64,000 bases of DNA from an uncultured Candidatus Saccharibacteria bacterium (GCA_964561155.1 CAZLOI010000003.1:16832-80831); one strand, 5' to 3'; shown: positions 16,411 to 36,535, counted from the first letter of the stretch. The notes: generated by a model from the sequence alone, not told the origin. Translations and numbers: made by a program.

Positions 16411-16794
16411 TTATCTTATGTATATAAAATAGTATAACCAGTATAGCACTACTGATACTATTTCGAACACGATAGAGAAGATCTGAACAATAACTCTACC
16501 ACCTCGTAGCGTTAGAGCGTTACCGAAGATTTTGAGTAATTGTATGAAGATTGAAAGTACATTAACTATTGTTAGAACAATAACTACTGCAAGGAATGCT
16601 CCTTGTAATCCTAGAGCTGTTTGGGACAATAAAAAGATTGCAGCTATTGGAACTCCTATCGTTCTTAGTAATAATCCAAACATATTTTTTAAGTTTATAT
16701 TTAATCTATCTCTAGTATACACAGCTGTACTAAAAGTTCCAAGGATAAACTTTGTAGAGTATGTGCCTACGACTAACGTGATAAAATTATTCAA
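16411..16794 (-). CDS. Small multi-TM membrane protein
   Basis: 127-aa ORF that is almost entirely hydrophobic. Confidence 0.35.
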   Translation of the reverse strand: MNNFITLVVGTYSTKFILGTFSTAVYTRDRLNINLKNMFGLLLRTIGVPIAAIFLLSQTALGLQGAFLAVVIVLTIVNVLSIFIQLLKIFGNALTLRGGRVIVQIFSIVFEIVSVVLYWLYYFIYIR

Positions 16795-17804
16795 TGCAAT
16801 TCCAGATAAACAACAAAACTAGATACTTTCTTATCGTCCTCATTCTTGGTTTTATTCTATATAGAGTACTTAACGTTGAAAGCTTTCTACAATTTGATCC
16901 AAATGGAATTCAAATCGGATACAAATTAAATGATCTAGTTACTACTTTTAGAAGTATCCTTATACAATCTTTCCCATTCCTGGTAATAGGATCTCTAGTC
17001 TCTGCTATAGTTGCAGCATTTGTTAAAGAAACCTGGCTCTTAAGCATTATTCCAAAGAATAGATTCCTATCTCACTTCCTTGTTTCTCTCCTTGGGTTCC
17101 TAATGCCTGTATGTGAATGCGGGAATGTTCCAGTAGCAAGAAGATTCATGCTACAAGGGTTTAAAGTATCCCACGCTGTTACCTTTCTAATGTCCGCACC
17201 AATTCTAAACCCTATTACTCTTTGGAGCACTTACGAAGCATTTAGAGGTGTGTATCAGAACGATATTATGCTGTGGGCTAGAATAATTGCGTGCTTAGTA
17301 GTAGCAAATGGACTTGGTTTGATAATTAGTTACAAAAGAAATCAATACTCTTTGCTTACAGATTCATTCTACAAAGAAGTATGTGAACATAAGCCGGAAG
17401 AAAAGAAAGACGGATTCCGAAACTTTATTGGAATCTTTTCAAAAGAATTTACAGTGGTAGCTACAACTTTAATTATGGGAGCTGCTATTGCAACACTGTT
17501 CCAATTAATTCCAAGGGATATTATTCTTGGTGTTGGCCAGAATGTAATACTATCTATTTTCGCAATGATTCTATACTCATTTATAATTTCTGTTTGTTCT
17601 AACGTAGATTCATTCCTTGTTATTAGGTATACATCAACATTCACACCAGGTTCAATTGCTGCTTACCTTTCATTTGGTCCATTGATTGATATAAAGGTAC
17701 TGACAATGCTTAGATCATCATTTAAAACAAAAACACTGTTATTCTTTACTGCATTCATATTCCTAACTTCTGTACTAACAGGTTTAATAGTTAACTTACT
17801 GTAA
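16794..17804 (+). CDS. DUF318/UPF0718 family permease
   Basis: Multi-TM protein with MPVCECGNVPVARRF motif typical of the DUF318 permease family. Confidence 0.65.
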   Translation: MQFQINNKTRYFLIVLILGFILYRVLNVESFLQFDPNGIQIGYKLNDLVTTFRSILIQSFPFLVIGSLVSAIVAAFVKETWLLSIIPKNRFLSHFLVSLLGFLMPVCECGNVPVARRFMLQGFKVSHAVTFLMSAPILNPITLWSTYEAFRGVYQNDIMLWARIIACLVVANGLGLIISYKRNQYSLLTDSFYKEVCEHKPEEKKDGFRNFIGIFSKEFTVVATTLIMGAAIATLFQLIPRDIILGVGQNVILSIFAMILYSFIISVCSNVDSFLVIRYTSTFTPGSIAAYLSFGPLIDIKVLTMLRSSFKTKTLLFFTAFIFLTSVLTGLIVNLL

Positions 17805-18610
17805 TGTTTGGATACGTATTTTCGATAATATTTGGTGGTTGGATTCTTTCAGCACATTTCCTACAACGAAATTTAAGTATCTATACATCTGACAGATACT
17901 ATGGATTAATACTGGTTGCTGCTTTCGTATCCGTTTTAATAGGAGTAGCAGGTATATATATAAATCGTAACTCATTCAAACAATCAAGCGACTCAACTAC
18001 ATATCTTGGAACATTCATAGCAACGCTAATCGGCGGACTCATCTTTTCACCAATACTCCTTCTATTCTCTATCTTTATGCTCGTATATTCTCAGTTCAAT
18101 TTGAAAATAAGCATGAACTTTATCTTTGCAGGAGTTCTCTTAACCAGTATCATCTTCCCTTCAAAAGGAATATCTCCGGCACTTGCAGAAGAACGTGCAG
18201 ATGAAATTAATACTGTGAACATTCAAACAGGAGTTAAGATACTTAACAACTTTGCTGTAGCTACAGATGAATACAGTATTGGAGACTGGGCTGCTTCTAT
18301 TTCATACAATCCAGATCCAGAATTCTATAAAGGAAAGAAAGTGAACTTAGATGGATTCATATTTAAACCTTCAAACCTAGAAAGTGATGAATTCTATATT
18401 GCTAGATACACAATTCGTTGTTGTGTTGCAGATGCAGCTCCTACTGGAATAAAGGTGAAGTATGACATTACAGATGAATTCCGAGTTGGAGACTGGGTAC
18501 GAGTTAGCGGTGAATTTGATATAGATGATTCAAAAGGTTACCAAGATATAGTAGTAAAGACTGAAAGTGTAGAAGCAATAGATATTCCAGAGAAACAGTA
18601 TATTTTCTAA
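17804..18610 (+). CDS. TIGR03943 (DUF1980) family protein, usual partner of the DUF318 permease
   Basis: Two N-terminal TMs followed by a soluble domain with ARYTIRCCVADAAP (the conserved CCxxDA motif); start overlaps the stop of the permease gene. Confidence 0.65.
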   Translation: MFGYVFSIIFGGWILSAHFLQRNLSIYTSDRYYGLILVAAFVSVLIGVAGIYINRNSFKQSSDSTTYLGTFIATLIGGLIFSPILLLFSIFMLVYSQFNLKISMNFIFAGVLLTSIIFPSKGISPALAEERADEINTVNIQTGVKILNNFAVATDEYSIGDWAASISYNPDPEFYKGKKVNLDGFIFKPSNLESDEFYIARYTIRCCVADAAPTGIKVKYDITDEFRVGDWVRVSGEFDIDDSKGYQDIVVKTESVEAIDIPEKQYIF

Positions 18611-18613
18611 CAT

Positions 18614-19984
18614 ATGAGAAAAAGCCTTGAGTTAATTACAATTATTGCCCTAATAATATCAACAGTCTTGGTAGGTATTGTATCGCTACAAAGTAGCTTT
18701 AGAGTTTCAGGAACAGAAAGGAATGATGATACAAACGTTATTAGCATCTACTTTAATAAACCAATTCCAAGAGACCTTGATCTTACAAAGTATATAAGCT
18801 CCATTCCTTCTAGCAATCTATCGTTTAACAACGTTGGAAACAGAATTGAGATATTACTGAGTAACCTAAGTTTAGGTGAAACATACAACGTTAAGGTAGA
18901 TAGAAGTCTTCCAAATCTATTCAATGAAACGCTTAATCAAGATACGATTGTAGAATTTAGTACAAAGAATCCAAAGTTTGCATACCTTAGAAACAAAGAT
19001 GGCTCCTTTGCAATACATACGTACGATCTAAAGACACAGGAAGATGTGCTTCAATACGCTACTTCTAATGAAATTAGAAGCTATTCGATTACAAGAAAAT
19101 ATCTACTTGTTGCAGAACTACAAACACTAACAGATATCAAAGTATCTTTAATAGATATAGCTACAAAAGATGTTGTAGAAGAAATAAATTTAAGTCAAAG
19201 CAACTTGTTTAAAGTAGAACTATCAGACAACAATGATTTTTTCATATATATCAGTCAGGATGCAAAGTCAGAAAGCGGTTTTGTAATACCTTTGGGATCA
19301 AGTAAGTTAACGCGTGTAGAAATTGATACTCTCGAAACAATTAACTTTAGCTACAATGAATTTACCAATGATATTCTCGATGCGTATATTACACCAGACA
19401 ACGAGGCTATGCTTCTACGAGGATTTGATTCAACATTCTATATAAAATCATTCCTAACAGATGACGAACCAATTACATTAGCGAAGTTTATAGGGACAGG
19501 TGGCTTTAATAGCAAAGGAAGCCAAATAATCTTTACAGCATTCGATCCAACGCTTGCATTCTCATCATTCCCATATATATCAATATACAACTCAGATCGA
19601 TCAACTGAGGATATAAAGATAGAAGGTTCATACGTAATAGATTCAGTGTTTGGTGGAGATTCTTCGATATACTACGCGAAGAAAGTAAAGGAACTTTTAG
19701 GAACACCAGGTTTCTTTGGAATATATAACTACAAAGACAATGCAGAGAAAGTAGTTATTCAAGATGACAACCTAGATACAAGCTTTGAATTACCTATACT
19801 CAGTCAAGACGACAACTATCTTTGCTACGAATCATATAGCGAAGCTGCAATGATGGATAACAGTAATCAAAGAAGTTTTATTAATCAAAGAAAACCTAAA
19901 AATGCATCTGTAAATATTTTCGAATTTCAAAGAAAAGGAAATGTAATTGAAATCCCGAATTCATATGACTGTAGGTGGATCTAG
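18614..19984 (+). CDS. Hypothetical N-terminally anchored beta-rich extracytoplasmic protein (456 aa)
   Basis: ATG 3 nt after the upstream stop; one N-terminal TM then a long Ser/Thr/Asn-rich beta-type sequence. Confidence 0.45.
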   Translation: MRKSLELITIIALIISTVLVGIVSLQSSFRVSGTERNDDTNVISIYFNKPIPRDLDLTKYISSIPSSNLSFNNVGNRIEILLSNLSLGETYNVKVDRSLPNLFNETLNQDTIVEFSTKNPKFAYLRNKDGSFAIHTYDLKTQEDVLQYATSNEIRSYSITRKYLLVAELQTLTDIKVSLIDIATKDVVEEINLSQSNLFKVELSDNNDFFIYISQDAKSESGFVIPLGSSKLTRVEIDTLETINFSYNEFTNDILDAYITPDNEAMLLRGFDSTFYIKSFLTDDEPITLAKFIGTGGFNSKGSQIIFTAFDPTLAFSSFPYISIYNSDRSTEDIKIEGSYVIDSVFGGDSSIYYAKKVKELLGTPGFFGIYNYKDNAEKVVIQDDNLDTSFELPILSQDDNYLCYESYSEAAMMDNSNQRSFINQRKPKNASVNIFEFQRKGNVIEIPNSYDCRWI

Positions 19985-20019
19985 GCAATAACACCCTTAA
20001 TCAAATTTAAACTAATATT

Positions 20020-20055
20020 CTTGACACCGATCTTTGGAAATGTTTCAATATACTC
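20020..20055 (+). promoter_or_regulatory. Conserved upstream element (copy A) containing TTGACA, about 65 nt upstream of surface-protein paralog 1
   Basis: CTTGACACCGATCTTTGGAAATGTTTCAATATACTC; near-identical element at 22479. Confidence 0.35.
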
Positions 20056-20121
20056 TGAGGTTGCACTCATAACTATATCGCCTAAGTTTTATATTTAAAG
20101 CACATTAACTAGGACTATTTT

Positions 20122-21234
20122 ATGACAACCAATTCACGATCTCTAGTCTCAGCACTAACAATATTATTCGTTCTAGCATCACCTCTACTTGGATTTTCAG
20201 AAGTATCTGCAGCTGCGTTAACAAACATGGCAATTGCTGGTACTGGTATTACAGCATCATCTTCTGCAGTAAGTGCAGCAATTACACCAACTATTTCATT
20301 TCAACTTCAAACAGCAGTAGCATCAACTGATACTATAAGAATACTATTCACAGGTAACGGCTCAAATAACGGAGTCACTGTATCTGGTGCAGGACTTGCA
20401 TCAGCAGATATAACAGTTTCAGGGGCATGCTCGGGAACAGTCACACTTGCTGGTACTCCAATAGCTACATCAACCGATAACCCAACATTGTCATTAACAG
20501 GCATTACAGGAACAACAGGTAGTGTTTGCAATGTAATAATTGCTGCATCTGAGCTATCTACAGACTCTGCTGCTGGAAATGTTTCTGTAGCAGTTGCAAC
20601 AAGCGTTGGAGACTTTGGAGCATTCATGTACTACATTGGAGATGCAAACGATGTTTCTGTAACAGCAATTGTTCCACCAACACTTTCATTCGTATTAAGA
20701 AATGCAGCAGATACTGCTGATTTATCACCTGGAGCTACTACTGGAAACAGAGTATGCAGCCTTGGAATCTTACAACTAGCAACAACTCCTGTACCTAGTA
20801 CTGGTGTTAATGGTTGCCAATACCGAATAAGAATTGCTACAAACGCTACTTCTGGATACGCAGTTAACTATCTATCAGATTCTGCAGATACCTCCGGCGG
20901 AGGCTTCGAAAGACTTGCTAAGAGTACAACTGTAAATATCCCAAATGTTTCAAATGATCCATTAACATCTAACAATGGTTATGGAGCTAGACTAACTCAA
21001 GTTTCAGCTGGACACACTAGAGGCGCTACTTTCACAGGTACTGCTGCTAACTATTTCCCAATAACCGCTAGTACTTCTACCGCAATGTATTCAAGTTCAG
21101 GACCACTAGCTCCTGGTGCTGCTCCAGATACAACTAACACCTCTCTAATTGAGCATGGTGCAAGAATAGCAGCCTCTCAAGAAGTAGGTAACTATGCTCA
21201 CGTTGTTACTTACACAGTCACAGCAACTTTCTAG
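20122..21234 (+). CDS. Secreted Thr/Ser/Ala/Gly-rich surface protein, paralog 1 of 3
   Basis: Signal peptide ...GFSEVSAA/ALT; conserved blocks DSAAGNVS, YYIGDANDVSVTAIVPPTLSFV, NRVCSLGILQLATTP, C-terminus EVGNYAHVVTYTVTATF. Confidence 0.6.
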   Translation: MTTNSRSLVSALTILFVLASPLLGFSEVSAAALTNMAIAGTGITASSSAVSAAITPTISFQLQTAVASTDTIRILFTGNGSNNGVTVSGAGLASADITVSGACSGTVTLAGTPIATSTDNPTLSLTGITGTTGSVCNVIIAASELSTDSAAGNVSVAVATSVGDFGAFMYYIGDANDVSVTAIVPPTLSFVLRNAADTADLSPGATTGNRVCSLGILQLATTPVPSTGVNGCQYRIRIATNATSGYAVNYLSDSADTSGGGFERLAKSTTVNIPNVSNDPLTSNNGYGARLTQVSAGHTRGATFTGTAANYFPITASTSTAMYSSSGPLAPGAAPDTTNTSLIEHGARIAASQEVGNYAHVVTYTVTATF

Positions 21235-21343
21235 TATAAGTATCAATTGATCATCAATTTATTACTAGAAAGACTAGCAAAGTAGTAGTATTAAAATAGA
21301 AAAAGAGTAAACTAAAATTGATATAAAACAACTTATAAAAAAC

Positions 21344-22468
21344 ATGAAAAACTATCAAGGAAAGGCAATTAATACATTAGTAATAGCATTCACATTGCTT
21401 AGTCCATTTACTGGATTCTTTAATGTATCTGCTGCTGCCCTAACTGCAATGAGTATATCTGGAACTGGTATTACAACTAACTCGTCTGCTGTAAGTGCTG
21501 CAATTACTCCAACATTCAACTTCACATTGGCAACAGCTGTTGGACCAACAGAAACAATTCAGATTACTTTCGTTGGTAACGGATCAAATAATGGAATAAC
21601 AGTTTCAGATGTTACAGGTCTTGCCTCAGCAGATATAACAGCAGGCGGAGTATGTTCTGGTTCAGTTACACTAGCTGGATCACCAATAGCTCAAAATACA
21701 GATAATCCAACTCTTTCTATAACTGGAGTTACTTGTACTACAGGTGCTGCAACATTAGCTATAGCAGCTTCCCAAGTATCTACAGATAGTGCTGCTGGTA
21801 ATGTTTCAATAGCAATTCTTGTAACAAGTGCCACTGGTGACTACGGTACATTTCTTTACTACATTGGAGATTCAAACGATGTTTCTGTAACAGCTATTGT
21901 TCCTCCAACTCTATCTTTTGTTATTCGAAATGGTGCAGATACATCTGATCTTTCACCAGGTGCAACAACAGGAAACAGAGTATGTAGTTTGGGTATCTTA
22001 CAATTAGCAACAACACCAACCCCATCCTCAGGTATAAACGGTTGTCAGTATAGATTTAGAATTGCTACTAACGCTACCTCAGGTTACGCTGTTTCATATC
22101 TCTCAAACTCTGCAGATACTGGTGGAGGTGCTTACGATAGACTTGCAAAGAATACAACTGTAAGTATTGCTAATGTCGCTGGTGGAGGAGATCCCTTATC
22201 TTCAAACGCAGGTTACGGAGTAAGATTGACTCAAGTTTCAGCAGGTCATGCAAGAGGTGCAACATTTACAGGTACAGCATCAAACTACTTCATAATTACA
22301 GCTAACACTGCAACTGCAATGTATAATAGTACTGGACCATTGGCTCCAGCTACTGCACCAGACACTACAAATACTTCTCTTATTGAACACGGTACTAGAA
22401 TAACCGCAGCTCAAGAAGTAGGTAACTATTCACACATAGTGACCTATACGGTAACAGCAACCTTCTAA
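21344..22468 (+). CDS. Secreted Thr/Ser/Ala/Gly-rich surface protein, paralog 2 of 3
   Basis: Same architecture and conserved blocks as paralog 1; C-terminus EVGNYSHIVTYTVTATF. Confidence 0.6.
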   Translation: MKNYQGKAINTLVIAFTLLSPFTGFFNVSAAALTAMSISGTGITTNSSAVSAAITPTFNFTLATAVGPTETIQITFVGNGSNNGITVSDVTGLASADITAGGVCSGSVTLAGSPIAQNTDNPTLSITGVTCTTGAATLAIAASQVSTDSAAGNVSIAILVTSATGDYGTFLYYIGDSNDVSVTAIVPPTLSFVIRNGADTSDLSPGATTGNRVCSLGILQLATTPTPSSGINGCQYRFRIATNATSGYAVSYLSNSADTGGGAYDRLAKNTTVSIANVAGGGDPLSSNAGYGVRLTQVSAGHARGATFTGTASNYFIITANTATAMYNSTGPLAPATAPDTTNTSLIEHGTRITAAQEVGNYSHIVTYTVTATF

Positions 22469-22478
22469 ATTCATGCTA

Positions 22479-22514
22479 CTTGACACCGACATTTAGAAAT
22501 GATTGAATGTTAAG
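22479..22514 (+). promoter_or_regulatory. Conserved upstream element (copy B), about 57 nt upstream of paralog 3
   Basis: CTTGACACCGACATTTAGAAATGATTGAATGTTAAG. Confidence 0.35.
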
Positions 22515-22570
22515 TAAGCCGATTTGGAAAATACTATTTACCTATTCCGAAATCTGATACACTAAAATAT

Positions 22571-23671
22571 ATGAAAAAATCAGTTGCACTCTTTACTATA
22601 GTTACGCTCTTCTTAACTCCATTTGCAGGATTCTTTAATGTCTCTGCTGCTGGAATTACATCAATGAGTATCACAGGAACTAATATTACATCTAACTCAT
22701 CTGCAGTCAGTACTGCAATTACACCTACTATAAACTTTACCTTAGCAACAGCTGTTGGACCAACTGAACCAATTCAACTTACATTTGCAGGTAACGGATC
22801 AAACAATGGAATTACAGTCTCAGATGCTGCAGGTCTTGCTTCAGCAGATATTACAGCTGGTGGTGTATGTTCAGGAACAGTCACACTAGCAGGTACTCCA
22901 ATTGCACAAAATACAGATAACCCAACACTTTCACTGACTGGAATAACATGTACAACAGGAGCAGCTACAATAACAATTGCAGTTTCAAATGTTTCAACAG
23001 ATTCTGCAGCTGGAAACCTTTCTGTAGGAATTACTACTGGATCTGGAGACTTCGGATCATTTCTCTACTACATTGGAGATGCTAACGATGTTTCAGTTAC
23101 AGCAATCGTTCCACCTACACTATCATTCGTTTTAAGAAACTCAGCAGATACAGCAGATCTAACACCAGGTACAACTGCAGGTGTTAGAGTTTGTAGTCTT
23201 GGTATCTTACAATTAGCTACAACTCCTGACCCAGGTACTGGTGTTAACGGTTGTATGTATAGATTAAGAATCGCAACAAACGCTACTTCTGGCTATGCAG
23301 TAAGCTATCTATCTGACTCTGCAGACACTCAAGCTGGTGGTTTTGAAAGACTTGCTAAAGATACAGATACAAATATCCCAAATGTTTCTAATGACCCACT
23401 AACAGCAACTAATGGTTATGGTGCTAGATTAACTCAAGTCTCAGCTGGACACACTAGAGGTGCTACCTTCACTGGTACTGCAGCTAACTATTTCCCAATA
23501 ACTGCTAGTACTGCTACAGCAATGTACAATAGCTCAGGTCCATTAGCTCCTGGAAACCCTCCAGACACTACAAATACATCACTTGTAGAACACGGAGCAA
23601 GGATTTCTGCGTCGCAGGAAGTAGGTAACTATGCTCATGTTGTTACATATACTGTAACTGCTACATTCTAA
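22571..23671 (+). CDS. Secreted Thr/Ser/Ala/Gly-rich surface protein, paralog 3 of 3 (mosaic of 2 and 1)
   Basis: N-terminal half matches paralog 2 (FNFTLATAVGPTE, ITAGGVCSG, PIAQNTDNPTLS, TCTTGAAT); C-terminal half matches paralog 1 (GGFERLAK, NIPNVSNDPLT, GYGARLTQVSAGHTRGATFTGTAANYFPITAST). Confidence 0.6.
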   Translation: MKKSVALFTIVTLFLTPFAGFFNVSAAGITSMSITGTNITSNSSAVSTAITPTINFTLATAVGPTEPIQLTFAGNGSNNGITVSDAAGLASADITAGGVCSGTVTLAGTPIAQNTDNPTLSLTGITCTTGAATITIAVSNVSTDSAAGNLSVGITTGSGDFGSFLYYIGDANDVSVTAIVPPTLSFVLRNSADTADLTPGTTAGVRVCSLGILQLATTPDPGTGVNGCMYRLRIATNATSGYAVSYLSDSADTQAGGFERLAKDTDTNIPNVSNDPLTATNGYGARLTQVSAGHTRGATFTGTAANYFPITASTATAMYNSSGPLAPGNPPDTTNTSLVEHGARISASQEVGNYAHVVTYTVTATF

Positions 23672-23765
23672 TATGGAGAATAAATACTAATCGCCTTGCT
23701 CATTCGCAATTAATTTTGTAAACTTATGAGCACAATATACTCTCTTATTTAGAAGCAGTTAAAAT

Positions 23766-24872
23766 ATGAAGTCTTTAAATATAGGTTTGTTGGTTCTCGT
23801 ACTAACTTCAACCGTTTCCCCATTTATCCAATTAGTATCAGCTCAAGAAGGTGTTTATGGTCCAATTATCAATGCAACTACATTTGAGTATGTTGTAGAG
23901 AAAGGTTCGACTATTACCGATTCATTTGAAGTACGGCATGACTATCAGGATGCAAATTTTATTGCAACTTTCTACCCAACAGCTGTAGATTTCACTGCAG
24001 ATGGAGAAAGTGGAACACCTGTATTCCTAGACAAGACAAGATCTAAGGGTAAATCATCATTAGAAGACTGGATTACACCAATAACAAGATCTATTACAAT
24101 ATCTGAACTTGGAGATACAGCACTTGTTGAATTTGAAATTACCGTCCCAATCGATGCAGAACCTGGATCATATACAGCAGGTCTTTTGCTTTCAGACTCA
24201 GAGTTTGACCCTCAAGCAGGACCAAACCAAGTAGCATTGGAATCAAGATTAGGTCCGTTAATCTTTGTAACAGTACCTGGAAACATTCAATCAAATCTAG
24301 AAGTTCTTAGCTTTGAAGCTGTAGATATATATGGAAATGCTCCTTTCTTAGGAATTTTTGAATACCACCCTATCGATTTCAAGCTTACACTAAAGAATGG
24401 TGGTAACGTATACATGACACCAGGAGGAACAATCTCTGTTCACCAAGGTGATCTTGCAAAGTCATCTTTTGTTATTCCAAATCTAAATGAAGACAAAGGT
24501 TCTATTTTAGCTGGTACAACTAGATCATATTTGAATCAATGGAATGATTCTGCATTTAGAATGAAATCTGAAATAGATACCAGCACAGGTCAAACAAACT
24601 ATAGCTTCGATTTCCACCCTGAATCATTAAACAAGATACGAGTTGGTAGATATACAGCTACTCTGCAACTATTCTATCGAGACAAAGCTACTGGTGAGAA
24701 TATTAGAATGGATTATGATATTCATTTCTGGATTATTCCTTGGAAAGCAATCCTATTAATCATTGCCCTAATCGTAGGATACTTCTTAATCAAGAAAGCA
24801 ATTAGGAACAGAAGAAACTCTCTTAAGAAATCTAAGAACGGACAGAGAATGATTGGTCAACGTGTTGTCTAA
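23766..24872 (+). CDS. DUF916-like cell-surface protein with C-terminal TM anchor and basic tail
   Basis: Signal peptide, about 300-aa beta-rich ectodomain, TM WKAILLIIALIVGYFLI, then KKAIRNRRNSLKKSK. Confidence 0.45.
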   Translation: MKSLNIGLLVLVLTSTVSPFIQLVSAQEGVYGPIINATTFEYVVEKGSTITDSFEVRHDYQDANFIATFYPTAVDFTADGESGTPVFLDKTRSKGKSSLEDWITPITRSITISELGDTALVEFEITVPIDAEPGSYTAGLLLSDSEFDPQAGPNQVALESRLGPLIFVTVPGNIQSNLEVLSFEAVDIYGNAPFLGIFEYHPIDFKLTLKNGGNVYMTPGGTISVHQGDLAKSSFVIPNLNEDKGSILAGTTRSYLNQWNDSAFRMKSEIDTSTGQTNYSFDFHPESLNKIRVGRYTATLQLFYRDKATGENIRMDYDIHFWIIPWKAILLIIALIVGYFLIKKAIRNRRNSLKKSKNGQRMIGQRVV

Positions 24873-24929
24873 TTCTTCGTAATATTTAGATCTTGCTCTT
24901 TGTACTACTAACTATTAAACTAGGTTAGT

Positions 24930-26495
24930 ATGAAGAGCAATTTCTATAAATTTAAAATCACATTCGCAATTATTTTCGGTACCCTACTTTCTATATCCCC
25001 ATTCAATCCAGTTAGATTAACAAATCCTAAAGATACGCTTGAGGTTTGTGCTCAGGATATTGGCTGGGAGGACTTAGGAACTGGTGTAAGTTGTGTTCCA
25101 AACTATTCAAGCTGTGGTTCAGGATTTAACATACTTGAAAGTGCTCTAGGAGCTAGATATGTAAATGGAATATCTCAATCACAACTTATTTCAAGTCTAG
25201 AAGCTAGTTATGGCACTGATATCAATCGAATTTGTACAACAGAGAACTTTTCTGACATAACTATACGTTGGATGACTGGGGGTGAATACAATGCTGCTCA
25301 GACGCAGAATATACCTAGCGTTGGTGATACACTTTCTGGTAAAGCAATACCTAGATTTTGTCCTGCAGGCTGGCAGGCACAGATTGGAACACAAAGATTC
25401 AACTTTGCTACTGGATACCCTAGTGGATGTTGTCCAACAGGATTTAAATTTGTAAACGTTGCAGAGCAACAAGACCCCAGTGCTTCACAAAATGGAGTTT
25501 GTTGTCGACTTCCTACTGTTTCAGGAGTAGGTACGCCTCACAAATATGCAACATCTGAATTTGGAGGTACGCTTGAAATTGCAGGCTGTTACGACGAAAA
25601 TGAAAACTTGATCTATGCAGTAGATGATGCTGAAAGCCAATCACCTTCCAGAGACTACAGTACTCTTGCTGATGCTATAGAAGCTGCTGAAGAAGGAAAT
25701 ATTATTGTTGGAATTAAGCAGACTGCAGGAGGGTACAACCCAAGTGTTAGTTTTGCAGAATCAAGTGGAAATAGCACAACAGTAGTTAAGCCACAACTTG
25801 GATTAGGCTTTGGGTTGGCATTCCCTGGGAATATAAACACTATTGCAGAAAGCAAACTTAGTAAAGAAAGATGTAGAAATAATGTTGGTTGTTTTATCTC
25901 GTCTGCAGGCATAGTGTCACCTAGAAATATAGTTGGCAGCGATGGTGTTAATGTTTTTGATAATCCTAGTAATAGCTCACTGACTTGTGAGAGATGCTTC
26001 AGTCCTGGAGAACCAGTAGAAGTTGATACTACAACGAACCTTCTAAGTATTTGTGATCCAACAGCACCGAATGCAATTCGAGAACAACCACTATGTAACT
26101 CCTCAGTTATAGACACCATAGCTTGTCTTGGTGGATCCAATTCTACTAGTCAAAATGCTAACTCCGATGGAGTCGGTAGTACAAACTACGATCTTTGTTG
26201 TGCTTGTAGAGTACAAGGAGGCGTGTGGACTGGAATAGGTTGTACCGATACAACTCCTGCAGGCTTAATTACAGGCCTGATCCGAATCGTCTACGGAGTC
26301 ATGGGTGGTGTTGCTTTAATCATGCTAATCTATGCAGGTATTATGTACCAAACAGGAAATGAAGCTAACGTAAAGCAAGCTAGAGAGAGTATTATAAGAA
26401 CTATCACGGGATTAATCGTACTAACATTTAGTATCTTGATATTAAGGATCATTGGAATCAATGTTCTAGATATATTACCTTCTGGGAGTATTTAA
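24930..26495 (+). CDS. Cys-rich secreted protein (about 30 Cys) with C-terminal two-helix membrane hairpin resembling VirB2/TrbC pilin topology
   Basis: N-terminal signal/TM; CC, CxxC and CxC clusters (GCCPTGFKF, GVCCRLP, LCCACRV) with no CxxCH; C-terminus LIRIVYGVMGGVALIMLIYAGIMY-QTGNEANVKQARESIIR-TITGLIVLTFSILIL. Confidence 0.5.
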   Translation: MKSNFYKFKITFAIIFGTLLSISPFNPVRLTNPKDTLEVCAQDIGWEDLGTGVSCVPNYSSCGSGFNILESALGARYVNGISQSQLISSLEASYGTDINRICTTENFSDITIRWMTGGEYNAAQTQNIPSVGDTLSGKAIPRFCPAGWQAQIGTQRFNFATGYPSGCCPTGFKFVNVAEQQDPSASQNGVCCRLPTVSGVGTPHKYATSEFGGTLEIAGCYDENENLIYAVDDAESQSPSRDYSTLADAIEAAEEGNIIVGIKQTAGGYNPSVSFAESSGNSTTVVKPQLGLGFGLAFPGNINTIAESKLSKERCRNNVGCFISSAGIVSPRNIVGSDGVNVFDNPSNSSLTCERCFSPGEPVEVDTTTNLLSICDPTAPNAIREQPLCNSSVIDTIACLGGSNSTSQNANSDGVGSTNYDLCCACRVQGGVWTGIGCTDTTPAGLITGLIRIVYGVMGGVALIMLIYAGIMYQTGNEANVKQARESIIRTITGLIVLTFSILILRIIGINVLDILPSGSI

Positions 26496-26496
26496 T

Positions 26497-27750
26497 ATGA
26501 AAAAACTGTTCTTTGTCAGTATTCCGCTTACTGCTGTAATCGTATGGTTTATGGAAGGCTTTCTACTTAGCTACTTTCAGGATTCATCTATTCAATCAAA
26601 TCTTGCAAAGCTAACTGGATTACTAGGTATCGCCTTTATGACGACTAGCTTTGTAACATCTTCAAGACTTGATCTCATTGAGAAACTATTTGGAGGATTA
26701 GATATAGCATACAAATACCACAAACTTGCAGGCAAGATTGCATATGTATTCATATTCATGCATCCAGTGCTTCTTGTTTTAAGAAGAGCTGTGAGTGTAG
26801 ATTCCATAAAGACATTCTTCGTAGCTGGAACAACACAAAGTACAACACTTAATACTGGTATCGTTGCATTCTACGTACTATCACTTTTAATACTGTTCAC
26901 ATTGGTTCTTAAACTACCATATCAATTCTGGAAGAAGACACATAGATTCATGATTGTAGTATTCCTACTCTCTTCTTGGCATATAATCGTTGCGGGAAAC
27001 GATATATCTAAAGTATACGGAGGTATATTACTTGTAGTTGGAGTATTTGCTTTTATCTACAGAGACTACATATATGGTCACTTTGTAAAAAAAAAACTCT
27101 ATCAGGTAGTTGATATTAAAAAGCTTTCTATTTCTACTACCGAAATCTTCCTTAAACCAGTAGGAAAAAGACTTGAATTCAAACCAGGACAATTCGTATT
27201 CATGAAGTTCATGAATTCAAAAACTATTCCTAGTGAAGCTCATCCATTCTCAATGGCTTCAGACAACTCCAAGGATATAATAAGGTTTTCGATTAAGGAA
27301 CTAGGTAACTACTCAGAGATTCTAGATTCAGCAAAGCCTGGCGATATGGTCAAACTAGTAGGACCACACGGTAAGTTCACCCTAGATACATCGATCAAGA
27401 AACAACTATGGATATCAGGAGGTATAGGTACTACTCCATTTCTTTCAATGCTACACGATGCAGAAGATACAGATATTGTCTTCATTCATTCTAATAGGGA
27501 AGAATCAGATGCTGTATATATTAGAGAGATCAGTGGTCTTCTAAATTCGAATTCAAAACTAATTACACATATGTCTGATATCGAAGGATTCATAGATGCA
27601 GAATACTTTAAGAAACATGTACCAGATTACCTAGAACGAACCATATACATATGTGGACCATTTGTAATGATGCATTCCCTAAGCAAAATACTACAAGGGC
27701 TAGGAGTACCAAAGGAGAACATTAGGTTTGAGGATTTCAACTTTAAGTGA
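26497..27750 (+). CDS. NOX/ferric-reductase-like transmembrane flavocytochrome (FRD heme domain + FAD + NAD(P)H binding)
   Basis: His pairs HKLAG...FMH (H-x13-H) and HRF...SSWH (H-x12-H) in TM helices, HPFS FAD motif, GGIGTTPF NAD(P)H motif; ATG 1 nt after the upstream TAA. Confidence 0.75.
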   Translation: MKKLFFVSIPLTAVIVWFMEGFLLSYFQDSSIQSNLAKLTGLLGIAFMTTSFVTSSRLDLIEKLFGGLDIAYKYHKLAGKIAYVFIFMHPVLLVLRRAVSVDSIKTFFVAGTTQSTTLNTGIVAFYVLSLLILFTLVLKLPYQFWKKTHRFMIVVFLLSSWHIIVAGNDISKVYGGILLVVGVFAFIYRDYIYGHFVKKKLYQVVDIKKLSISTTEIFLKPVGKRLEFKPGQFVFMKFMNSKTIPSEAHPFSMASDNSKDIIRFSIKELGNYSEILDSAKPGDMVKLVGPHGKFTLDTSIKKQLWISGGIGTTPFLSMLHDAEDTDIVFIHSNREESDAVYIREISGLLNSNSKLITHMSDIEGFIDAEYFKKHVPDYLERTIYICGPFVMMHSLSKILQGLGVPKENIRFEDFNFK

Positions 27751-27751
27751 T

Positions 27752-28699
27752 CTAAACAGCAACCATTATCTGACTGATAATCATTGCGACATATACTGTT
27801 ACTAACAGTATACCCTCTGTCCTATTCAAGCTTCTTTCAGAAAGCATAAAGAATATAAAGAGAACTAATGCAAAGAATAAGAAGAATATACCAAGTAGGA
27901 GTGCTGTAGTATCGGCTATCAATACTCCGTTTGCTAGCAGCGCTAGGAGCCCTAATATACCAACATTCACACATGCACTACCAAAGAAGTTACCTAGAGC
28001 TAGTTCCTCTTCAGAGCCTTGTTTGGCGGTAAGTAGAATAGTAATCTCTGGTAAGTTGGTACCAATAGATAGAAGCACTAATCCCACAAATGTTCCAGAT
28101 ATTCCTAGAGCTTCAACAATCACTTCTAGATTGTTAACTATCTGGCTTGAAGAAAATAGTAACAAGAATATTCCAACTATCACCAAAACAATTAACCTAT
28201 ATATCGAAGTATTTTCTAGTGTTAAATAGAAAACCTGTCTTCCAAGCTTCCACATCTTCCTATTCAAGAATACCAAGTATGCAAAGTATGAAAGAATTAG
28301 TAACAAACCTTCGAATACACCTAGATATCCATCGAGAAGAGTAAAGACCATAACAAACATAGTAGCTATACCACCAAGGATCTCTAATGCAGAGAAACTA
28401 CTTTGAAACTTAATCAGCTTGTACTTAACCGCAGACAATCCAATAATTAATGCAAGAATAACCGTAGATGCTCCAACAAGGTTTCCTACAGATATTTCTG
28501 GATGATGATCACTTGAGAATACAGCAATACTAATTTCAGGGAGAGATGTAACAATACCAAGCACAACAAATCCTAAGAAGAATTCATTAATCCTAAACAT
28601 TTGTCCAAACTTCACAAAAGAATTCTCGACAAGCTTTGCTGAATAGATAAGAAGAATTAAGAAAAATCCTGAAAGAATAATATTACCTGCAATATTCAT
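27752..28699 (-). CDS. CaCA-family cation (Na+/Ca2+) antiporter
   Basis: Two alpha-repeat motifs GIVTSLPEISIAV and GTNLPEITILLTA in a 10-TM protein. Confidence 0.7.
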   Translation of the reverse strand: MNIAGNIILSGFFLILLIYSAKLVENSFVKFGQMFRINEFFLGFVVLGIVTSLPEISIAVFSSDHHPEISVGNLVGASTVILALIIGLSAVKYKLIKFQSSFSALEILGGIATMFVMVFTLLDGYLGVFEGLLLILSYFAYLVFLNRKMWKLGRQVFYLTLENTSIYRLIVLVIVGIFLLLFSSSQIVNNLEVIVEALGISGTFVGLVLLSIGTNLPEITILLTAKQGSEEELALGNFFGSACVNVGILGLLALLANGVLIADTTALLLGIFFLFFALVLFIFFMLSERSLNRTEGILLVTVYVAMIISQIMVAV

Positions 28700-28705
28700 A
28701 TATTT

Positions 28706-29653
28706 TTAGTTACTAGGTATCATTTTGTAAGATTTTGTTCTTCTTTGCAACTTCTTCTTCAAGAATCTCGATAATACATACAGAATAACAACAGATGCAG
28801 TTCCTCCAGCGACTGTATAGAAGGTTCTGTTCTGAGTTGGGATATCAATTCTAAATACTTGTGACTTTCCAGTGAACGTATCAGTTAGCTGAAGCTCCAC
28901 AACTTTGTTAGGTGAAAGAACTGTATCCAAAAAATCAAACTCATATTTAAAGCTCTCTTCAACAACCTTGTCTGGAGAAAGGTATCTTAGATTTTCATTG
29001 ATAACTTTCTGAAGATATACATTTCCTCGGTTATCTATAACCTGAACTCTAGCTAATATCTTACTTGGGAATAATCCTGAGTTCTTGTATCCAATATTGA
29101 TATCAATTATTCCATCGTATTGGCTTTCATCTGTATAATCAAAGCTATACATTTCAATTTCAGATTCGTATGATTGATTGCCAGAAACGAATAGATTAAT
29201 TCTATGCCCAATAGCAGCCTTAAGTGTTGTACCCTCCCCTAATCCAATATTTCTAAGAATAATTAGTGGAACATAGAATCCATCATTTAAATTGGCAGGA
29301 ACTATGAAGTTAAAATATATTAGCTGTTCTTCGTTAGGTAATACAATGAATTCACGAACACTTGATTGAAGAAAGCTCTCTTCATCACTTAATTCTCTAA
29401 TCTCTTCACCATATACTTCACCAAAGCTTAGTTCAAACCCGAATGCTGTATCGTAGTTATTCTTAAGAATAAAACTTCCAGTAACAGTTTCTCCTTGCTT
29501 TGCTCTTATCTCTGTTTCAAATGGATACATACTCATACCTTCAATCTCTTGAGCCTGAATTGGGTTTAGATTGGAAAACAATGATGAAGATATCAGAACA
29601 AGGATCACGAAAAGCGATCTTAGAAGTAATCCTTTAGATAGAAATCTTTGCAT
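28706..29653 (-). CDS. DUF916-like cell-surface protein with C-terminal TM anchor, distant paralog of 23766..24872
   Basis: Signal peptide, beta-rich ectodomain with colinear motifs (FETEIRAKQGETVTGSF versus FEYVVEKGSTITDSF), C-terminal TM and KKKLQRRTK tail. Confidence 0.45.
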   Translation of the reverse strand: MQRFLSKGLLLRSLFVILVLISSSLFSNLNPIQAQEIEGMSMYPFETEIRAKQGETVTGSFILKNNYDTAFGFELSFGEVYGEEIRELSDEESFLQSSVREFIVLPNEEQLIYFNFIVPANLNDGFYVPLIILRNIGLGEGTTLKAAIGHRINLFVSGNQSYESEIEMYSFDYTDESQYDGIIDINIGYKNSGLFPSKILARVQVIDNRGNVYLQKVINENLRYLSPDKVVEESFKYEFDFLDTVLSPNKVVELQLTDTFTGKSQVFRIDIPTQNRTFYTVAGGTASVVILYVLSRFLKKKLQRRTKSYKMIPSN

Positions 29654-29714
29654 TAATGTAAGTTAATCGACTTACTCAGTATATCGGAGAGAGGATTTAA
29701 GGACAAGGATGAAC

Positions 29715-30611
29715 CTAGTTAGTGGAAGTATTTAAATTCGCAGGTTGTAACTTATATCTTGAGTTTGATTTACAATCTTCACAGCAACCTCCTTCAAACT
29801 TAGCATCGCATTCCTCACAGCAGATAAATTGCTTGTTACACTTTGCATTGCAGCAGTTAATATATCTAAGTGTCTTAGTATTACAGTGTAAACATTCAGA
29901 TATTATTTCTGGATTAACGCTATTAACAGGAACATGAATTCGATTGTCGAAAACATAGCATGCACCTTCGAAATCCTTTCCCCCTGTTTCTTCTCCGTAT
30001 CTAACTATACCTCCATGCAACTGTCTGACATTTTTAAAACCCTGTTCTACAAGATATGCAGAAGCTTTCTCGCATCTAATACCACCCGTACAATATGTAA
30101 CAACAGGTTTGTCTTTTAAATCTTTAATAGATTCTACAAATGTAGGCCAGTCTCGGAAGTTATTAATATCTGGAGTAATTGCATTCTTGAATTTACCAAT
30201 CTTTGATTCGTAGTTATTTCTTGCATCGATAATGATAACGTCATCAGGGGACTCATCTAATATCTTTCTTAGCTCCTTTGGTTCAATATACTCCGCTCTA
30301 TTTTTTACATCTACAGAATAACGAAGTGTTACAACTTCTTCTCGAACTACAACTCTAAGCTTTGGGAAAGGGTCAATTTCCGATGTGCTAATCTTCCATT
30401 CCATATCACTAAACTCAGGATAGCTTTCTGTAACTCTCATGTATTCCTCTACAGCTTCCTCGGATCCACCAACAGTACCATTAAGGCCTTCAGAAGATAT
30501 AAGGATTCGACCCTTTAGATTTAATCTAGAGCATAGCTCAAACTGCTCATCTCTGAATTTATCAGGATTAGCTAATTCGACGTATTTGTAATACAAAAGA
30601 ACTTTAAACAT
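29715..30611 (-). CDS. trhO: Rhodanese-domain tRNA uridine(34) hydroxylase TrhO/YceA-like, with extended Cys-rich C-terminal tail
   Basis: UPF0176 N-domain, rhodanese active-site CTGGIRCEKAS, and a C-terminal tail with more than 12 Cys. Confidence 0.7.
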   Translation of the reverse strand: MFKVLLYYKYVELANPDKFRDEQFELCSRLNLKGRILISSEGLNGTVGGSEEAVEEYMRVTESYPEFSDMEWKISTSEIDPFPKLRVVVREEVVTLRYSVDVKNRAEYIEPKELRKILDESPDDVIIIDARNNYESKIGKFKNAITPDINNFRDWPTFVESIKDLKDKPVVTYCTGGIRCEKASAYLVEQGFKNVRQLHGGIVRYGEETGGKDFEGACYVFDNRIHVPVNSVNPEIISECLHCNTKTLRYINCCNAKCNKQFICCEECDAKFEGGCCEDCKSNSRYKLQPANLNTSTN

Positions 30612-30653
30612 GTGCTAATTATACTATATGACTAAAAGAAGATGATAATGCTA

Positions 30654-31214
30654 TTAAGCCTCAATAGTTTCGAAAGGTACCATTTCAGCACTCCCTACTG
30701 CAAATCTTGAAGAACCACCATCAACATTGTGTGGCTGACAAAGTATTCCTTCAATTCCTGCGGATTTAGCAGCTTCAAGAACTATTTCAAGGGATTTAAT
30801 AAAGTCAGATTCATAACCAAAAGGAACATAGTTTGTACTAGAAAAGTCTGCTCGCAAAATAGAAACTGGTAAATGTTCAGATTGTGATAGGTGCAAAGTC
30901 ATTACAGAATCTTGATCAAATTGTACTGTAGCAGAAATACTATTACTTTTAATATCGTTCCGCTTCCAAAATACCACTCCTCCGTATATTTTTACATGTT
31001 GTTCGATAGCTCTAATCGCTGGTCCGTAGGATTTTGAATTTCGATCCCTAGATACAACACTTTCATCAAGAATTAGTGGATCTTCGTAAGTCATACACCC
31101 TTGTAACCAAAGAAATGCGTCCTTCAAAGAATTAGCATCTTCACTTGCTTCATACCACGCGAATGCTGCTAACGATCTTCTTGTACTGTGCTGCTTTTCA
31201 AAATTATTATCCAT
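30654..31214 (-). CDS. Hypothetical protein (186 aa)
   Basis: ORF with no recognisable motif. Confidence 0.4.
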   Translation of the reverse strand: MDNNFEKQHSTRRSLAAFAWYEASEDANSLKDAFLWLQGCMTYEDPLILDESVVSRDRNSKSYGPAIRAIEQHVKIYGGVVFWKRNDIKSNSISATVQFDQDSVMTLHLSQSEHLPVSILRADFSSTNYVPFGYESDFIKSLEIVLEAAKSAGIEGILCQPHNVDGGSSRFAVGSAEMVPFETIEA

Positions 31215-35034: not shown

Positions 35035-35649
35035 TTATTGTCTGGAAACCAGGGTCACAAGACCATTATAGACTGGTACTAAATCATGACTACCTATGCT
35101 TGTAGAGTGACTTCCTTTCGGGAACAAAGGATCAACACAGAAATACTTATTCTTTGCGCTATCAAAATATACAACCACTAGATGCCTGCTTTCACTAGGT
35201 AACATTACTGATACCATTGCATACTCGAATTCACCATCCTTCAATTTGTTAAAAACTTCTTCCAATGATATATCTTCAAAGTATTTTGCTTTTAAATCAT
35301 ATAGTCTAAATAGGATCTCGGATATTCTATGGTCATAACCTGCTTTCAAGCTGAACGCAGGCTGGAAAGTTTGATCAGGACCACAAATATAAAATGGTTC
35401 AGAATAAACTTCTTCTGCAGCGCCAAGAGTTATAGGTAAGGTGATCCCACTCTCTAAGTAGTCTCTTTTAGCTACTGCTAGACGATTTTTATGAAGTGCA
35501 CTTAGAAGCTCTACTATTTGTAATGGTAACACTGCAGTCTGAGTCAATTCAGTAACTATCATTGCTACACAGCAAACACCACAGGTAGCTTTTTTCAGAT
35601 CATCATTTTCGAAACTGTCATGTTGATTATAGAAGCTTGATTCTTTCAT
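35035..35649 (-). CDS. Standalone papain-fold C39-like cysteine peptidase domain protein
   Basis: KKATCGVCCVAMIV resembles the C39 Cys motif (DCGxAxLxMI); RHLVVVY...FCVDP resembles the C39 His motif (HFVVL...ADP). Confidence 0.5.
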   Translation of the reverse strand: MKESSFYNQHDSFENDDLKKATCGVCCVAMIVTELTQTAVLPLQIVELLSALHKNRLAVAKRDYLESGITLPITLGAAEEVYSEPFYICGPDQTFQPAFSLKAGYDHRISEILFRLYDLKAKYFEDISLEEVFNKLKDGEFEYAMVSVMLPSESRHLVVVYFDSAKNKYFCVDPLFPKGSHSTSIGSHDLVPVYNGLVTLVSRQ

Positions 35650-36535
35650 CTTTATCTAGTTGATTAAGAATATAATTTGCTAAATGCTTATTGGCCTCGT
35701 GTCCTGGTTTAAGAACCTCGAATCTTCCGATTAAGGCTGCACCTACAAGACCTAAATCTCCAATCATGTCGAGTATCTTATGCCTCACTAACTCTGTATC
35801 ATTTTTTAACGGAGTGATGAATTTATCTTTATTGAATACTATTATGGGTGAGAGCGATGGATCATCCGAAATACCTGGAAATATCTTCTTAACATTCTGC
35901 CAGGCTACACCTTCGTCATCCAATTCAGATCTCATAAAAGATCTTGAAGGAGATATATACCCCAAGTAATTTTCTTTATTAACAACTACTGAATATGATT
36001 GTTTTCCAATTATATTATTAAAATCGATAGTAGCGTTAATTTCATAATAGTCCGAAGGTATTACACGAATATGGGTATCTGTGCTTTCATAGGTAATTTC
36101 TACCTCGTTTGTACAAACAATAGAATGCCGAGCTTGCTCCTGTTGTTTAAGTCCTGCATTTGCTATGAATCTACAGAACTCTTCGGAACTGCTACTTAGA
36201 AATGGTACTTGTCCATTACATAGATCAATGTAGATATTGTCTATGCCCATTCCTCTAATTGCCGAGATAATGTGTTCAATCGTTTTCACCTCTATACCAT
36301 TGGAAGTAAGAGAGGTAGTGTGTGTATATCCATCATCTTTTAGATTTCCGATTACCGCTTTTATTTCCATATTATTAACACTGAAGACAATCCCAGTATC
36401 ACAAGGTGCCGGGCTAAATATAGCCTTACACGTTTCTTTTGAATAAGCAGAGAACCCTGACATCTCAATTGCTAGATCTATCGTCATCTGCTTGGTATTT
36501 GTTTCAATTAATTTGAAAGATTTCATATTATGCAT
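35627..36535 (-). CDS. LpxC-like zinc-dependent N-acetylglucosamine deacetylase
   Basis: TIEHIISAI, VRHKILDMIGDLGLVG and PGHEANKH match the LpxC zinc-ligand and active-site motifs (HKxLD, GH). Confidence 0.75.
   Translation of the reverse strand: MHNMKSFKLIETNTKQMTIDLAIEMSGFSAYSKETCKAIFSPAPCDTGIVFSVNNMEIKAVIGNLKDDGYTHTTSLTSNGIEVKTIEHIISAIRGMGIDNIYIDLCNGQVPFLSSSSEEFCRFIANAGLKQQEQARHSIVCTNEVEITYESTDTHIRVIPSDYYEINATIDFNNIIGKQSYSVVVNKENYLGYISPSRSFMRSELDDEGVAWQNVKKIFPGISDDPSLSPIIVFNKDKFITPLKNDTELVRHKILDMIGDLGLVGAALIGRFEVLKPGHEANKHLANYILNQLDKDERIKLL

Follow-up and report, generated by a model that had tools for sequence, protein, structure and literature searches.

The closest described relatives of the genes considered here belong to a family of pilins and a family of flavocytochromes. 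Proteins that match Pfam family PF18895 (T4SS_pilin, after the type IV secretion system, T4SS) are VirB2-like pilins of Patescibacteria, reported from 1,948 assemblies and often encoded in hypervariable tandem arrays, with the pilin gene near virB4 in 1135 of the 1948 (PMC12102498). SpNOX, the NADPH oxidase (NOX) of Streptococcus pneumoniae (PDB 8qt6, 8qq7; PMC5676040, PMC11564096, PMC11031084), is a transmembrane flavocytochrome, and even its physiological acceptor is debated (PMC11564096). Members of both families are encoded side by side in the stretch analysed here, 64,000 nucleotides (nt) from an uncultured Candidatus Saccharibacteria bacterium (GCA_964561155.1, CAZLOI010000003.1:16832-80831; hereafter the window): a cysteine-rich protein of 521 amino acids (aa) that ends in a PF18895 module and, directly behind it, a NOX. 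A preliminary description of this DNA had proposed that the pair constitutes an undescribed extracytoplasmic redox module. That proposal finds no support, because the two genes are adjacent in four syntenic lineages only and the pair is missing from six other lineages that carry the cysteine-rich family, from 79 of 80 NOX loci and from 80 pilin loci. We think it probable that these are two functionally separate genes, brought side by side through lineage-specific gene order, and unlikely that the cysteine-rich protein and the NOX form a dedicated redox machine.

The pairing was compared in ten lineages, namely the window and those of the comparison loci L001-3, L004/5, L006, L007, L008, L009, L011, L094 and L096. 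The NOX gene lies directly 3′ of the gene for the cysteine-rich protein in the window and in L011, with a gap of 1 nt, and in L001-3, with a gap of 5 nt; in L004/5, the two are kept apart by about 570 nt and a 23S_rRNA_IVP gene (in L004, from genome KLAP211, the inserted gene occupies 10373-10711 and encodes a 112-aa protein of the four-helix-bundle type). These four lineages, to which the pair is limited, also share the genes for ArsP_1, DUF1980, a 456-aa protein, the Pam-like proteins discussed below, Na_Ca_ex, rhodanese, AsnB and PGK. Since nearly all of the surrounding gene order is common to them, the adjacency can be accounted for by synteny in general, and since the 23S_rRNA_IVP gene splits the pair in L004, translational coupling is dispensable.

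The remaining six lineages (L006, L007, L008, L009, L094 and L096) carry the cysteine-rich family with no adjacent NOX. In three of them the gene is translationally coupled to another partner, a gene for an 815-aa secreted protein with no family match that overlaps its start (L006 5548-8001, L007 4758-7205, L009 3-1040). In L008 it stands between the genes for the 456-aa protein and the Na/Ca exchanger, with no NOX between them, and in L094 and L096 the family member sits among housekeeping genes. A screen that started from NOX covered 80 loci, from different GTDB species, within 6 kb, using profiles of the whole cysteine-rich protein, of its ectodomain and of its pilin module; 79 gave no match, and the sole match, L012, is from the same genome as L004. 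Nor was a NOX found in any of 80 pilin-domain loci taken from metagenomes. In other words, the pair is not conserved together in relatives, which is the outcome that had been named beforehand as refuting a redox module.

What the homologues of the cysteine-rich protein have in common is a scaffold of cysteines. The protein had been credited with about 30 of them; the actual count is 21, or 4.0% of residues, roughly fivefold the ~0.8% found across the open reading frames (ORFs) of the window. The clusters are as they had been described, with CC occurring three times, CxxC twice, CxC once and CxxCH not at all. Fourteen full-length homologues were found, those with names coming from Candidatus Dojkabacteria, which bears out the CPR (candidate phyla radiation) origin assumed in the preliminary description. 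In an alignment of 14 each of the 21 cysteines is kept in at least 11 and 14 cysteines are invariant; identity among the ectodomains drops to ~30%. Hydropathy places a hydrophobic, signal-like segment at aa 4-30. A PDB sequence search with the protein gave no match, and the ectodomain of its AlphaFold2 (AF2) model (predicted local distance difference test, 68.6) gave no fold match in the PDB or among viral predictions. No redox cofactor site was recognised: CxxCH, HPGG and Pfam redox domains are all missing from the protein, though its cysteines might in principle be redox-active themselves. The lack of CxxCH led us to reject a role as a multihaem protein or cytochrome c, and a metallothionein-like metal sink, considered in view of the putative metal-permease operon nearby, seems unlikely, the ectodomain being hypervariable with only the cysteine scaffold kept. 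The L004 protein (KLAP211 genome) is longer, at 757 aa, and has an additional N-terminal domain of ~240 aa.

The variability is best seen in a comparison with L011, a near relative of the window in which neighbouring proteins are 92-98% identical at the amino acid level and the NOX is 96% identical. Flanking DNA on both sides (23374-25088 and 25995-30628) aligns at ~90% nucleotide identity. Across the central cassette of the ectodomain that lies between these flanks (Table 1), protein identity is 7-33%, against 93-100% at both ends of the protein. The window cassette is nearer to those of more distant lineages (27-57% identity) than to that of L011, which suggests either cassette exchange or the maintenance of old alleles. 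A conserved disulfide scaffold with a replaceable surface would be the signature of an exposed determinant of recognition or evasion. There is a second strain-variable spot at 30629-31208, where a minus-strand gene (30654-31214) encodes a 186-aa protein with no family match that is 26% identical to its L011 counterpart; the DNA around this gene is 90-93% identical to that of L011.

The C-terminal end of the protein had been likened to the hairpin of VirB2/TrbC pilins. The C-terminal sequence quoted in that comparison is exact, and the likeness stands as far as two hydrophobic helices and a PF18895 match above cutoff are concerned; to the classical TrbC/VirB2 family PF04956 it is seen in sub-threshold matches only (E 0.01-0.7 in 5 of 10 family members). 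Against a cutoff of 26.6 bits, PF18895 gives a borderline 26.9 bits with the whole protein and 31.0 bits with the isolated C-terminal 101 aa, and 11 of 15 related proteins match it as well. The hydrophobic segments span aa 443-476 and 485-521, with K and R in the loop between them, QTGNEANVKQARESIIR, and the AF2 helices span aa 443-475 and 478-508. No solved pilin was matched, either in a PDB sequence search with the pilin profile or in a PDB fold search with the AF2 model. An exhaustive representative search with the 101-aa module returned 6184 clusters at E ≤ 1e-3; among the best 150 matches listed, the module is C-terminal and the proteins that carry it are 64-773 aa long. Across the cysteine-rich family the last ~100 residues are 73-100% identical, compared with ~30% for the ectodomains, and an invariant cysteine pair together with GG and G positions is common to the hairpin and to stand-alone pilins of 100-160 aa. 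The 80 metagenome pilin loci hold 184 pilin-domain ORFs, many of them in arrays of 2-7, and about a quarter of these ORFs exceed 250 aa.

The window protein thus resembles the VirB2-like pilins of Patescibacteria in its C-terminal 65-100 aa, which fit the model, in its two transmembrane (TM) helices with a short charged loop, in its Sec signal and conserved cysteine pair, in the high variability of the exposed part, and in a distribution restricted to CPR. It differs from them in carrying an ectodomain of ~400 aa and 21 cysteines, without recognisable fold, in place of a short mature N-terminus, and at 521 aa with such an ectodomain it falls outside the small pilin core defined in PMC12102498. 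Its gene, moreover, is single, stands outside any pilin array and adjoins a Pam-like cluster, and the window yielded no virB4. Both gene families are already known; what is new is a large, hypervariable, cysteine-scaffold ectodomain on a pilin module beside a Pam-like cluster, and ectodomain-bearing pilin proteins of this sort are not discussed in the survey of Patescibacteria T4SS.

We suspect that the first gene specifies a Sec-exported surface protein whose ectodomain of ~400 aa is built on the conserved 21-cysteine scaffold, presumably held by disulfides, with a central part that is replaced wholesale between close strains. The hairpin would be arranged with the N-terminus outside, the loop in the cytoplasm and the C-terminus outside. 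Its conservation goes well beyond what mere anchoring would call for, from which we infer that some conserved envelope machine either receives it by docking or polymerises it; this machine might be the T4SS-type pilus apparatus of Patescibacteria or the adjoining Pam-like filament cluster. The ectodomain may serve in recognition, turned towards hosts or phages and subject to diversifying selection. The product of the second gene would work as a solo SpNOX-type enzyme, taking electrons from NAD(P)H in the cytoplasm and passing them, by way of FAD and two haems, to an acceptor outside, be it O2, a metal or a protein, and we would expect no electron transfer between it and the cysteine-rich protein.

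By its sequence the downstream protein is a SpNOX-type flavocytochrome, and here the preliminary description, which had called it a complete ferric-reductase/NADPH-oxidase-like protein, is borne out. Pfam recognises Ferric_reduct (1.1e-12, aa 40-158), FAD_binding_8 (2.8e-07, the FAD_binding_8/6 region spanning aa 217-294) and NAD_binding_1 (3.1e-09, aa 306-395), and the best solved relatives, SpNOX 8qt6 and 8qq7, align over the full length (E 5.5e-34; aa 41-417 of the query against 35-399 of the chain). The bis-His haem motifs, HPFS and GGIGTTPF that had been claimed for it are all present, as His75/His89 and His149/His162, at aa 249 and at aa 308. The haem ligands, spaced H75-x13-H89 and H149-x12-H162, align to those of SpNOX, and aa 1-197 contain about six hydrophobic segments; among 25 homologues H75, H89 and H162 never vary, and 23 of the 25 have H149. 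When the published filter for bacterial NOX (Hajjar et al. 2017; PMC5676040) is applied, the bis-histidyl His-x12/14-His motifs of TM3 and TM5 in a 6-TM domain are found, as is the FAD motif H[PSA]F[TS][LIMV], in the form HPFSM at aa 249-253. The nucleotide motif is missed by one residue, G-I-G-T-T-P at aa 309-314 having Thr312 outside [VIAF]; the same position deviates in 5 of 25 aligned homologues, the window included, and the remaining 20 carry I or V. The protein is therefore like SpNOX in length class, full-length alignment, the ~6 TM segments, H-x13-H plus H-x12-H, HPFSM, GGIGTTPF and the absence of regulatory domains, and it differs in coming from a CPR bacterium.

The commonest neighbour of NOX genes is a gene for a cytochrome b5-domain (Cyt-b5) protein, found by clustering in 24 of the 80 loci (Pfam Cyt-b5, 1.4e-54). 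In 16 loci (L015, L016, L019, L020, L021, L023, L030, L035, L037, L041, L043, L044, L045, L050, L055 and L070) it lies directly downstream of the NOX gene on the same strand, overlapping it or at near-zero spacing. The hosts of NOX-Cyt-b5 loci include Saccharibacteria, Paceibacterota, Staskawiczbacteria, Pacearchaeota, Woesearchaeota and others, that is, CPR, DPANN and some other metagenome-assembled genomes (MAGs). The linked proteins are 128-361 aa long and have one TM anchor, at the N-terminus, with either one or two HPGG domains behind it; because the anchor precedes the HPGG domain or domains, the haem domain is placed outside the cell. We found no description of this link in the literature searched, which returned only cytochrome b558 matches. 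The arrangement is the one that had been imagined for the window, a transmembrane NOX-type carrier with an extracytoplasmic partner encoded by a translationally coupled neighbour, but its partner is a haem-binding Cyt-b5 protein encoded downstream, whereas the window neighbour is encoded upstream and has no haem motif. The anchored cytochrome b5 is in our view a candidate for the protein to which bacterial NOX homologues pass electrons physiologically, and this pairing, in giving a concrete candidate for the long-sought NOX acceptor, may be a more valuable lead than the pair in the window. The possibility of a hidden cytochrome b5 domain in the window was rejected, none of the ORFs in the 64 kb containing HPGG. 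A rough neighbour-joining tree puts the window-clade NOX together with two sequences from Saccharibacteria (L013 and L014), both without Cyt-b5. The MsrQ-MsrP system, cited by the SpNOX authors as a possible analogy, shares the concept of a membrane haem protein belonging to the FRD (ferric reductase domain) family that feeds an extracytoplasmic protein; it differs in that the window has no MsrP-like molybdoenzyme, the cysteine-rich protein has no redox cofactor motif and the co-occurrence is not conserved.

At the junction of the two window genes the sequence reads ATT TAA T ATG, which confirms the 1-nt spacing between stop codon and ATG noted earlier, and a Shine-Dalgarno-like GGGAG lies 8 nt 5′ of the NOX ATG. 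The two genes are the last of a run of ten on the same strand (16794-27750), and the NOX gene is followed by that for the Na/Ca exchanger. Because of the 1-nt spacing, the NOX is probably co-transcribed with the upstream surface-protein genes; a scan for promoters and terminators was uninformative, returning fewer sites than shuffled sequence did.

Table 1. Positions in the window of the two genes, their parts and the neighbouring genes referred to in the text.
Feature	Position	Strand	Description
ArsP_1 permease, DUF1980/TIGR03943 permease subunit, 456-aa secreted protein	16794-19984	+	Putative metal-permease operon (Pfam, NCBIfam, synteny)
Three tandem paralogues, 370/374/366 aa	20122-23671	+	74-77% identical; Pam-pilin-like, secreted; NCBIfam CPR_Pam_pilin_C, sub-threshold
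368-aa protein	23766-24872	+	Signal peptide and C-terminal TM anchor (hydrophobic aa 3-26, 318-348); candidate PamC/PamD-like chaperone or DUF916 (WxLIP)-like protein
Gene for the cysteine-rich protein	24930-26495	+	ORF, 521 aa: N-terminal signal-like segment, ~400-aa ectodomain with 21 Cys, C-terminal VirB2-like pilin module
Hypervariable central cassette of the ectodomain	25089-25994 (~aa 54-355)	+	No blastn match between window and L011
PF18895 T4SS_pilin (VirB2-like) match	26253-26447 (aa 442-506)	+	Two TM helices flanking loop QTGNEANVKQARESIIR
NOX gene	26497-27750	+	ORF, 417 aa, SpNOX-type flavocytochrome b: ~6-TM ferric-reductase domain, two bis-His haem sites, FAD- and NAD(P)H-binding domains
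Na+/Ca2+ exchanger family protein	27752-28699	-	Pfam Na_Ca_ex 6e-38; convergent with NOX, 1 nt between stop codons
315-aa protein	28706-29653	-	Same architecture as the 368-aa protein: signal peptide, C-terminal TM followed by KKKLQRRTK
352-aa protein	52821-53879	-	Sub-threshold N-terminal PrgI (VirB3-like) match, 23.5 bits against cutoff 27; CarboxypepD_reg domain

If the pair were a dedicated redox module, the NOX would give NAD(P)H electrons to the cysteine-rich protein, which would take the place of the Cyt-b5 acceptor, or would make reactive oxygen species beside it. Close spacing of 1 or 5 nt recurs in three lineages, the adjacency survives a drop in NOX identity between lineages to 50%, no Cyt-b5 gene lies downstream of the window-clade NOX, and the literature leaves open a protein acceptor for SpNOX-type enzymes. 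Yet the pair is absent from the six lineages, the 79 of 80 NOX loci and the 80 pilin loci given above, a gene has been inserted into it in L004, and the cysteine-rich protein lacks a haem or metal-cofactor motif such as CxxCH; the central ectodomain, furthermore, has been swapped between strains whose NOX proteins are 96% identical, which fits poorly with docking through a specific interface. To our knowledge, one-electron transfer from haem to a disulfide has no precedent among FRD proteins, and we count this against the module as well. Taken together, these considerations make it very improbable. It seems to us scarcely credible that the window-clade NOX, having lost Cyt-b5, acts on or beside a co-expressed, pilin-anchored cysteine-rich protein, exerting thiol/disulfide control or making superoxide at the base of a host-contact filament; were this true, the pair would amount to a redox-armed attachment organelle. 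Several of the same observations nonetheless weigh against our own reading of two separate genes, the first of them for a pilus-associated recognition protein. Adjacency persists in spite of NOX divergence, and gaps as small as 1 nt (window, L011) or 5 nt (L001) would make it easier for the genes to be expressed together, so that there may be some functional coupling within the clade. SpNOX has an exposed outer haem and reduces cytochrome c directly, and a protein acceptor has been suggested for it (PMC11564096); the window-clade NOX has no Cyt-b5 partner of the usual kind nearby. The adhesin role is deduced wholly from variability and topology, the Pam assignment of the upstream genes comes from sub-threshold matches, and no VirB4, VirB6 or VirD4 was found among the 54 window ORFs scanned with Pfam.

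The NOX might instead be a surface metalloreductase for Fe(III) or Cu(II) that serves the ArsP_1-DUF1980-456-aa operon, much as eukaryotic Fre/STEAP enzymes work with a permease, the cysteine-rich gene and the Pam-like cluster having been inserted between them. In the Saccharibacteria locus L013 (5986-10429) a same-strand run of ArsP_1, DUF1980 and a gene homologous to that for the 456-aa protein begins 77 nt behind the NOX gene, and L013 and L014 are sister to the window-clade NOX in the rough tree. ArsP_1 and DUF1980 also lie ~600 nt downstream of the NOX in an Anaerolineales MAG (L063, 1707-5221), genes of the operon are within ~7 kb of the NOX in all four window-clade lineages, ArsP_1 has a weak match to a Cu/Zn efflux transporter family, and Zip, FUR and CobW genes stand beside the operon in L008. 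Outside the clade, however, the link occurs in only 2 of 79 NOX loci, Dojkabacteria L006-L009 keep the operon without an adjacent NOX, the literature on the operon is almost nil, and SpNOX itself is a poor ferric reductase (PMC11564096); we regard a metalloreductase as rather doubtful. As to the cysteine-rich protein, its hairpin could be a mere membrane anchor for a static, cell-bound surface protein that is never extracted or polymerised and is unconnected to either pilus system. This would agree with the lack of T4SS core genes in the window, whose sole T4SS-related signal is the PrgI-like match at 52821-53879, 27 kb from the pair, with the housekeeping surroundings of the L094 and L096 members, and with an ectodomain far bigger than anything in the small pilins described from Patescibacteria. 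The conservation of the hairpin relative to the ectodomains, including its invariant cysteine pair, GG and G, is nevertheless more than lipid anchoring requires, and the short members of the family stand in tandem, 2-7 to an array, as one would expect of pilins; a simple anchor is in our view improbable. We therefore keep to two separate genes, the first with a hairpin that may engage an envelope machine.

In the Pam-like cluster upstream, the gene for the 368-aa anchored protein ends 58 nt before that for the cysteine-rich protein, and Pam-like genes precede the cysteine-rich gene in 7 of the 10 lineages, including L006, L007 and, in part, L009. The first of the three paralogues scores 19.6 bits (E 7.6e-4) with CPR_Pam_pilin_C, for which the cutoff is 55, and an E value of 0.01 or less is reached by 7 of 9 members of the family, the best being 2.3e-8, all of them below the cutoff; the Pam-like subunits gave no match in a PDB sequence search. 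The 315-aa protein encoded on the other side of the pair has orthologues inside the Pam-like cluster in L006 and L007. The architecture of these anchored proteins matches that of PamC and PamD from the pam operon of Ca. Mycosynbacter amalyticus, and the tandem paralogous secreted subunits are a further point of likeness to that operon (bioRxiv 10.64898/2026.03.03.709456). The differences are that all matches in the window fall below curated cutoffs, that no PamT- or PamR-like proteins were identified in it, and that a cysteine-rich PF18895 protein has not been described as a pam component. Judged by sequence, the CPR Pam pilus, described only recently, appears through this cluster to reach relatives in Dojkabacteria as well.

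A likeness to the WxL/DUF916 loci of Firmicutes (PMC10599100) is also apparent. The profile of the anchored-protein family matches Enterococcus faecium EfmWxLIP1 (DUF916; PDB 9i25, 9i1y) at E 3.7e-5, rather than PapD, and the Pam-like subunits end in a WxL-like YTVTATF strand. A Pam-like cluster with DUF916/WxLIP-like anchored proteins is a hint that the Pam pili of CPR are connected with the WxL surface-protein loci of Firmicutes, possibly through common ancestry.

The importance of the pair as such is small, since it is probably not a system. Of more interest is what the cysteine-rich protein shows of the VirB2-like pilin module in Patescibacteria: it can bear large ectodomains, too, on a disulfide scaffold, swapped between near-identical strains. 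Such a pattern would fit a protein by which host-attached bacteria recognise their hosts or evade phages.

Among the other neighbours, the ArsP_1-DUF1980-456-aa operon is kept near the cysteine-rich gene in the eight Dojkabacteria lineages examined. Farther downstream, on the minus strand, the window encodes an LpxC homologue (35627-36535; Pfam 3.2e-58), unexpected in an apparent CPR genome if the organism is without lipid A; the product of the gene next to it (36528-37424) resembles proteins of the formylglycine-generating-enzyme/PvdO type, not LpxA or LpxD.

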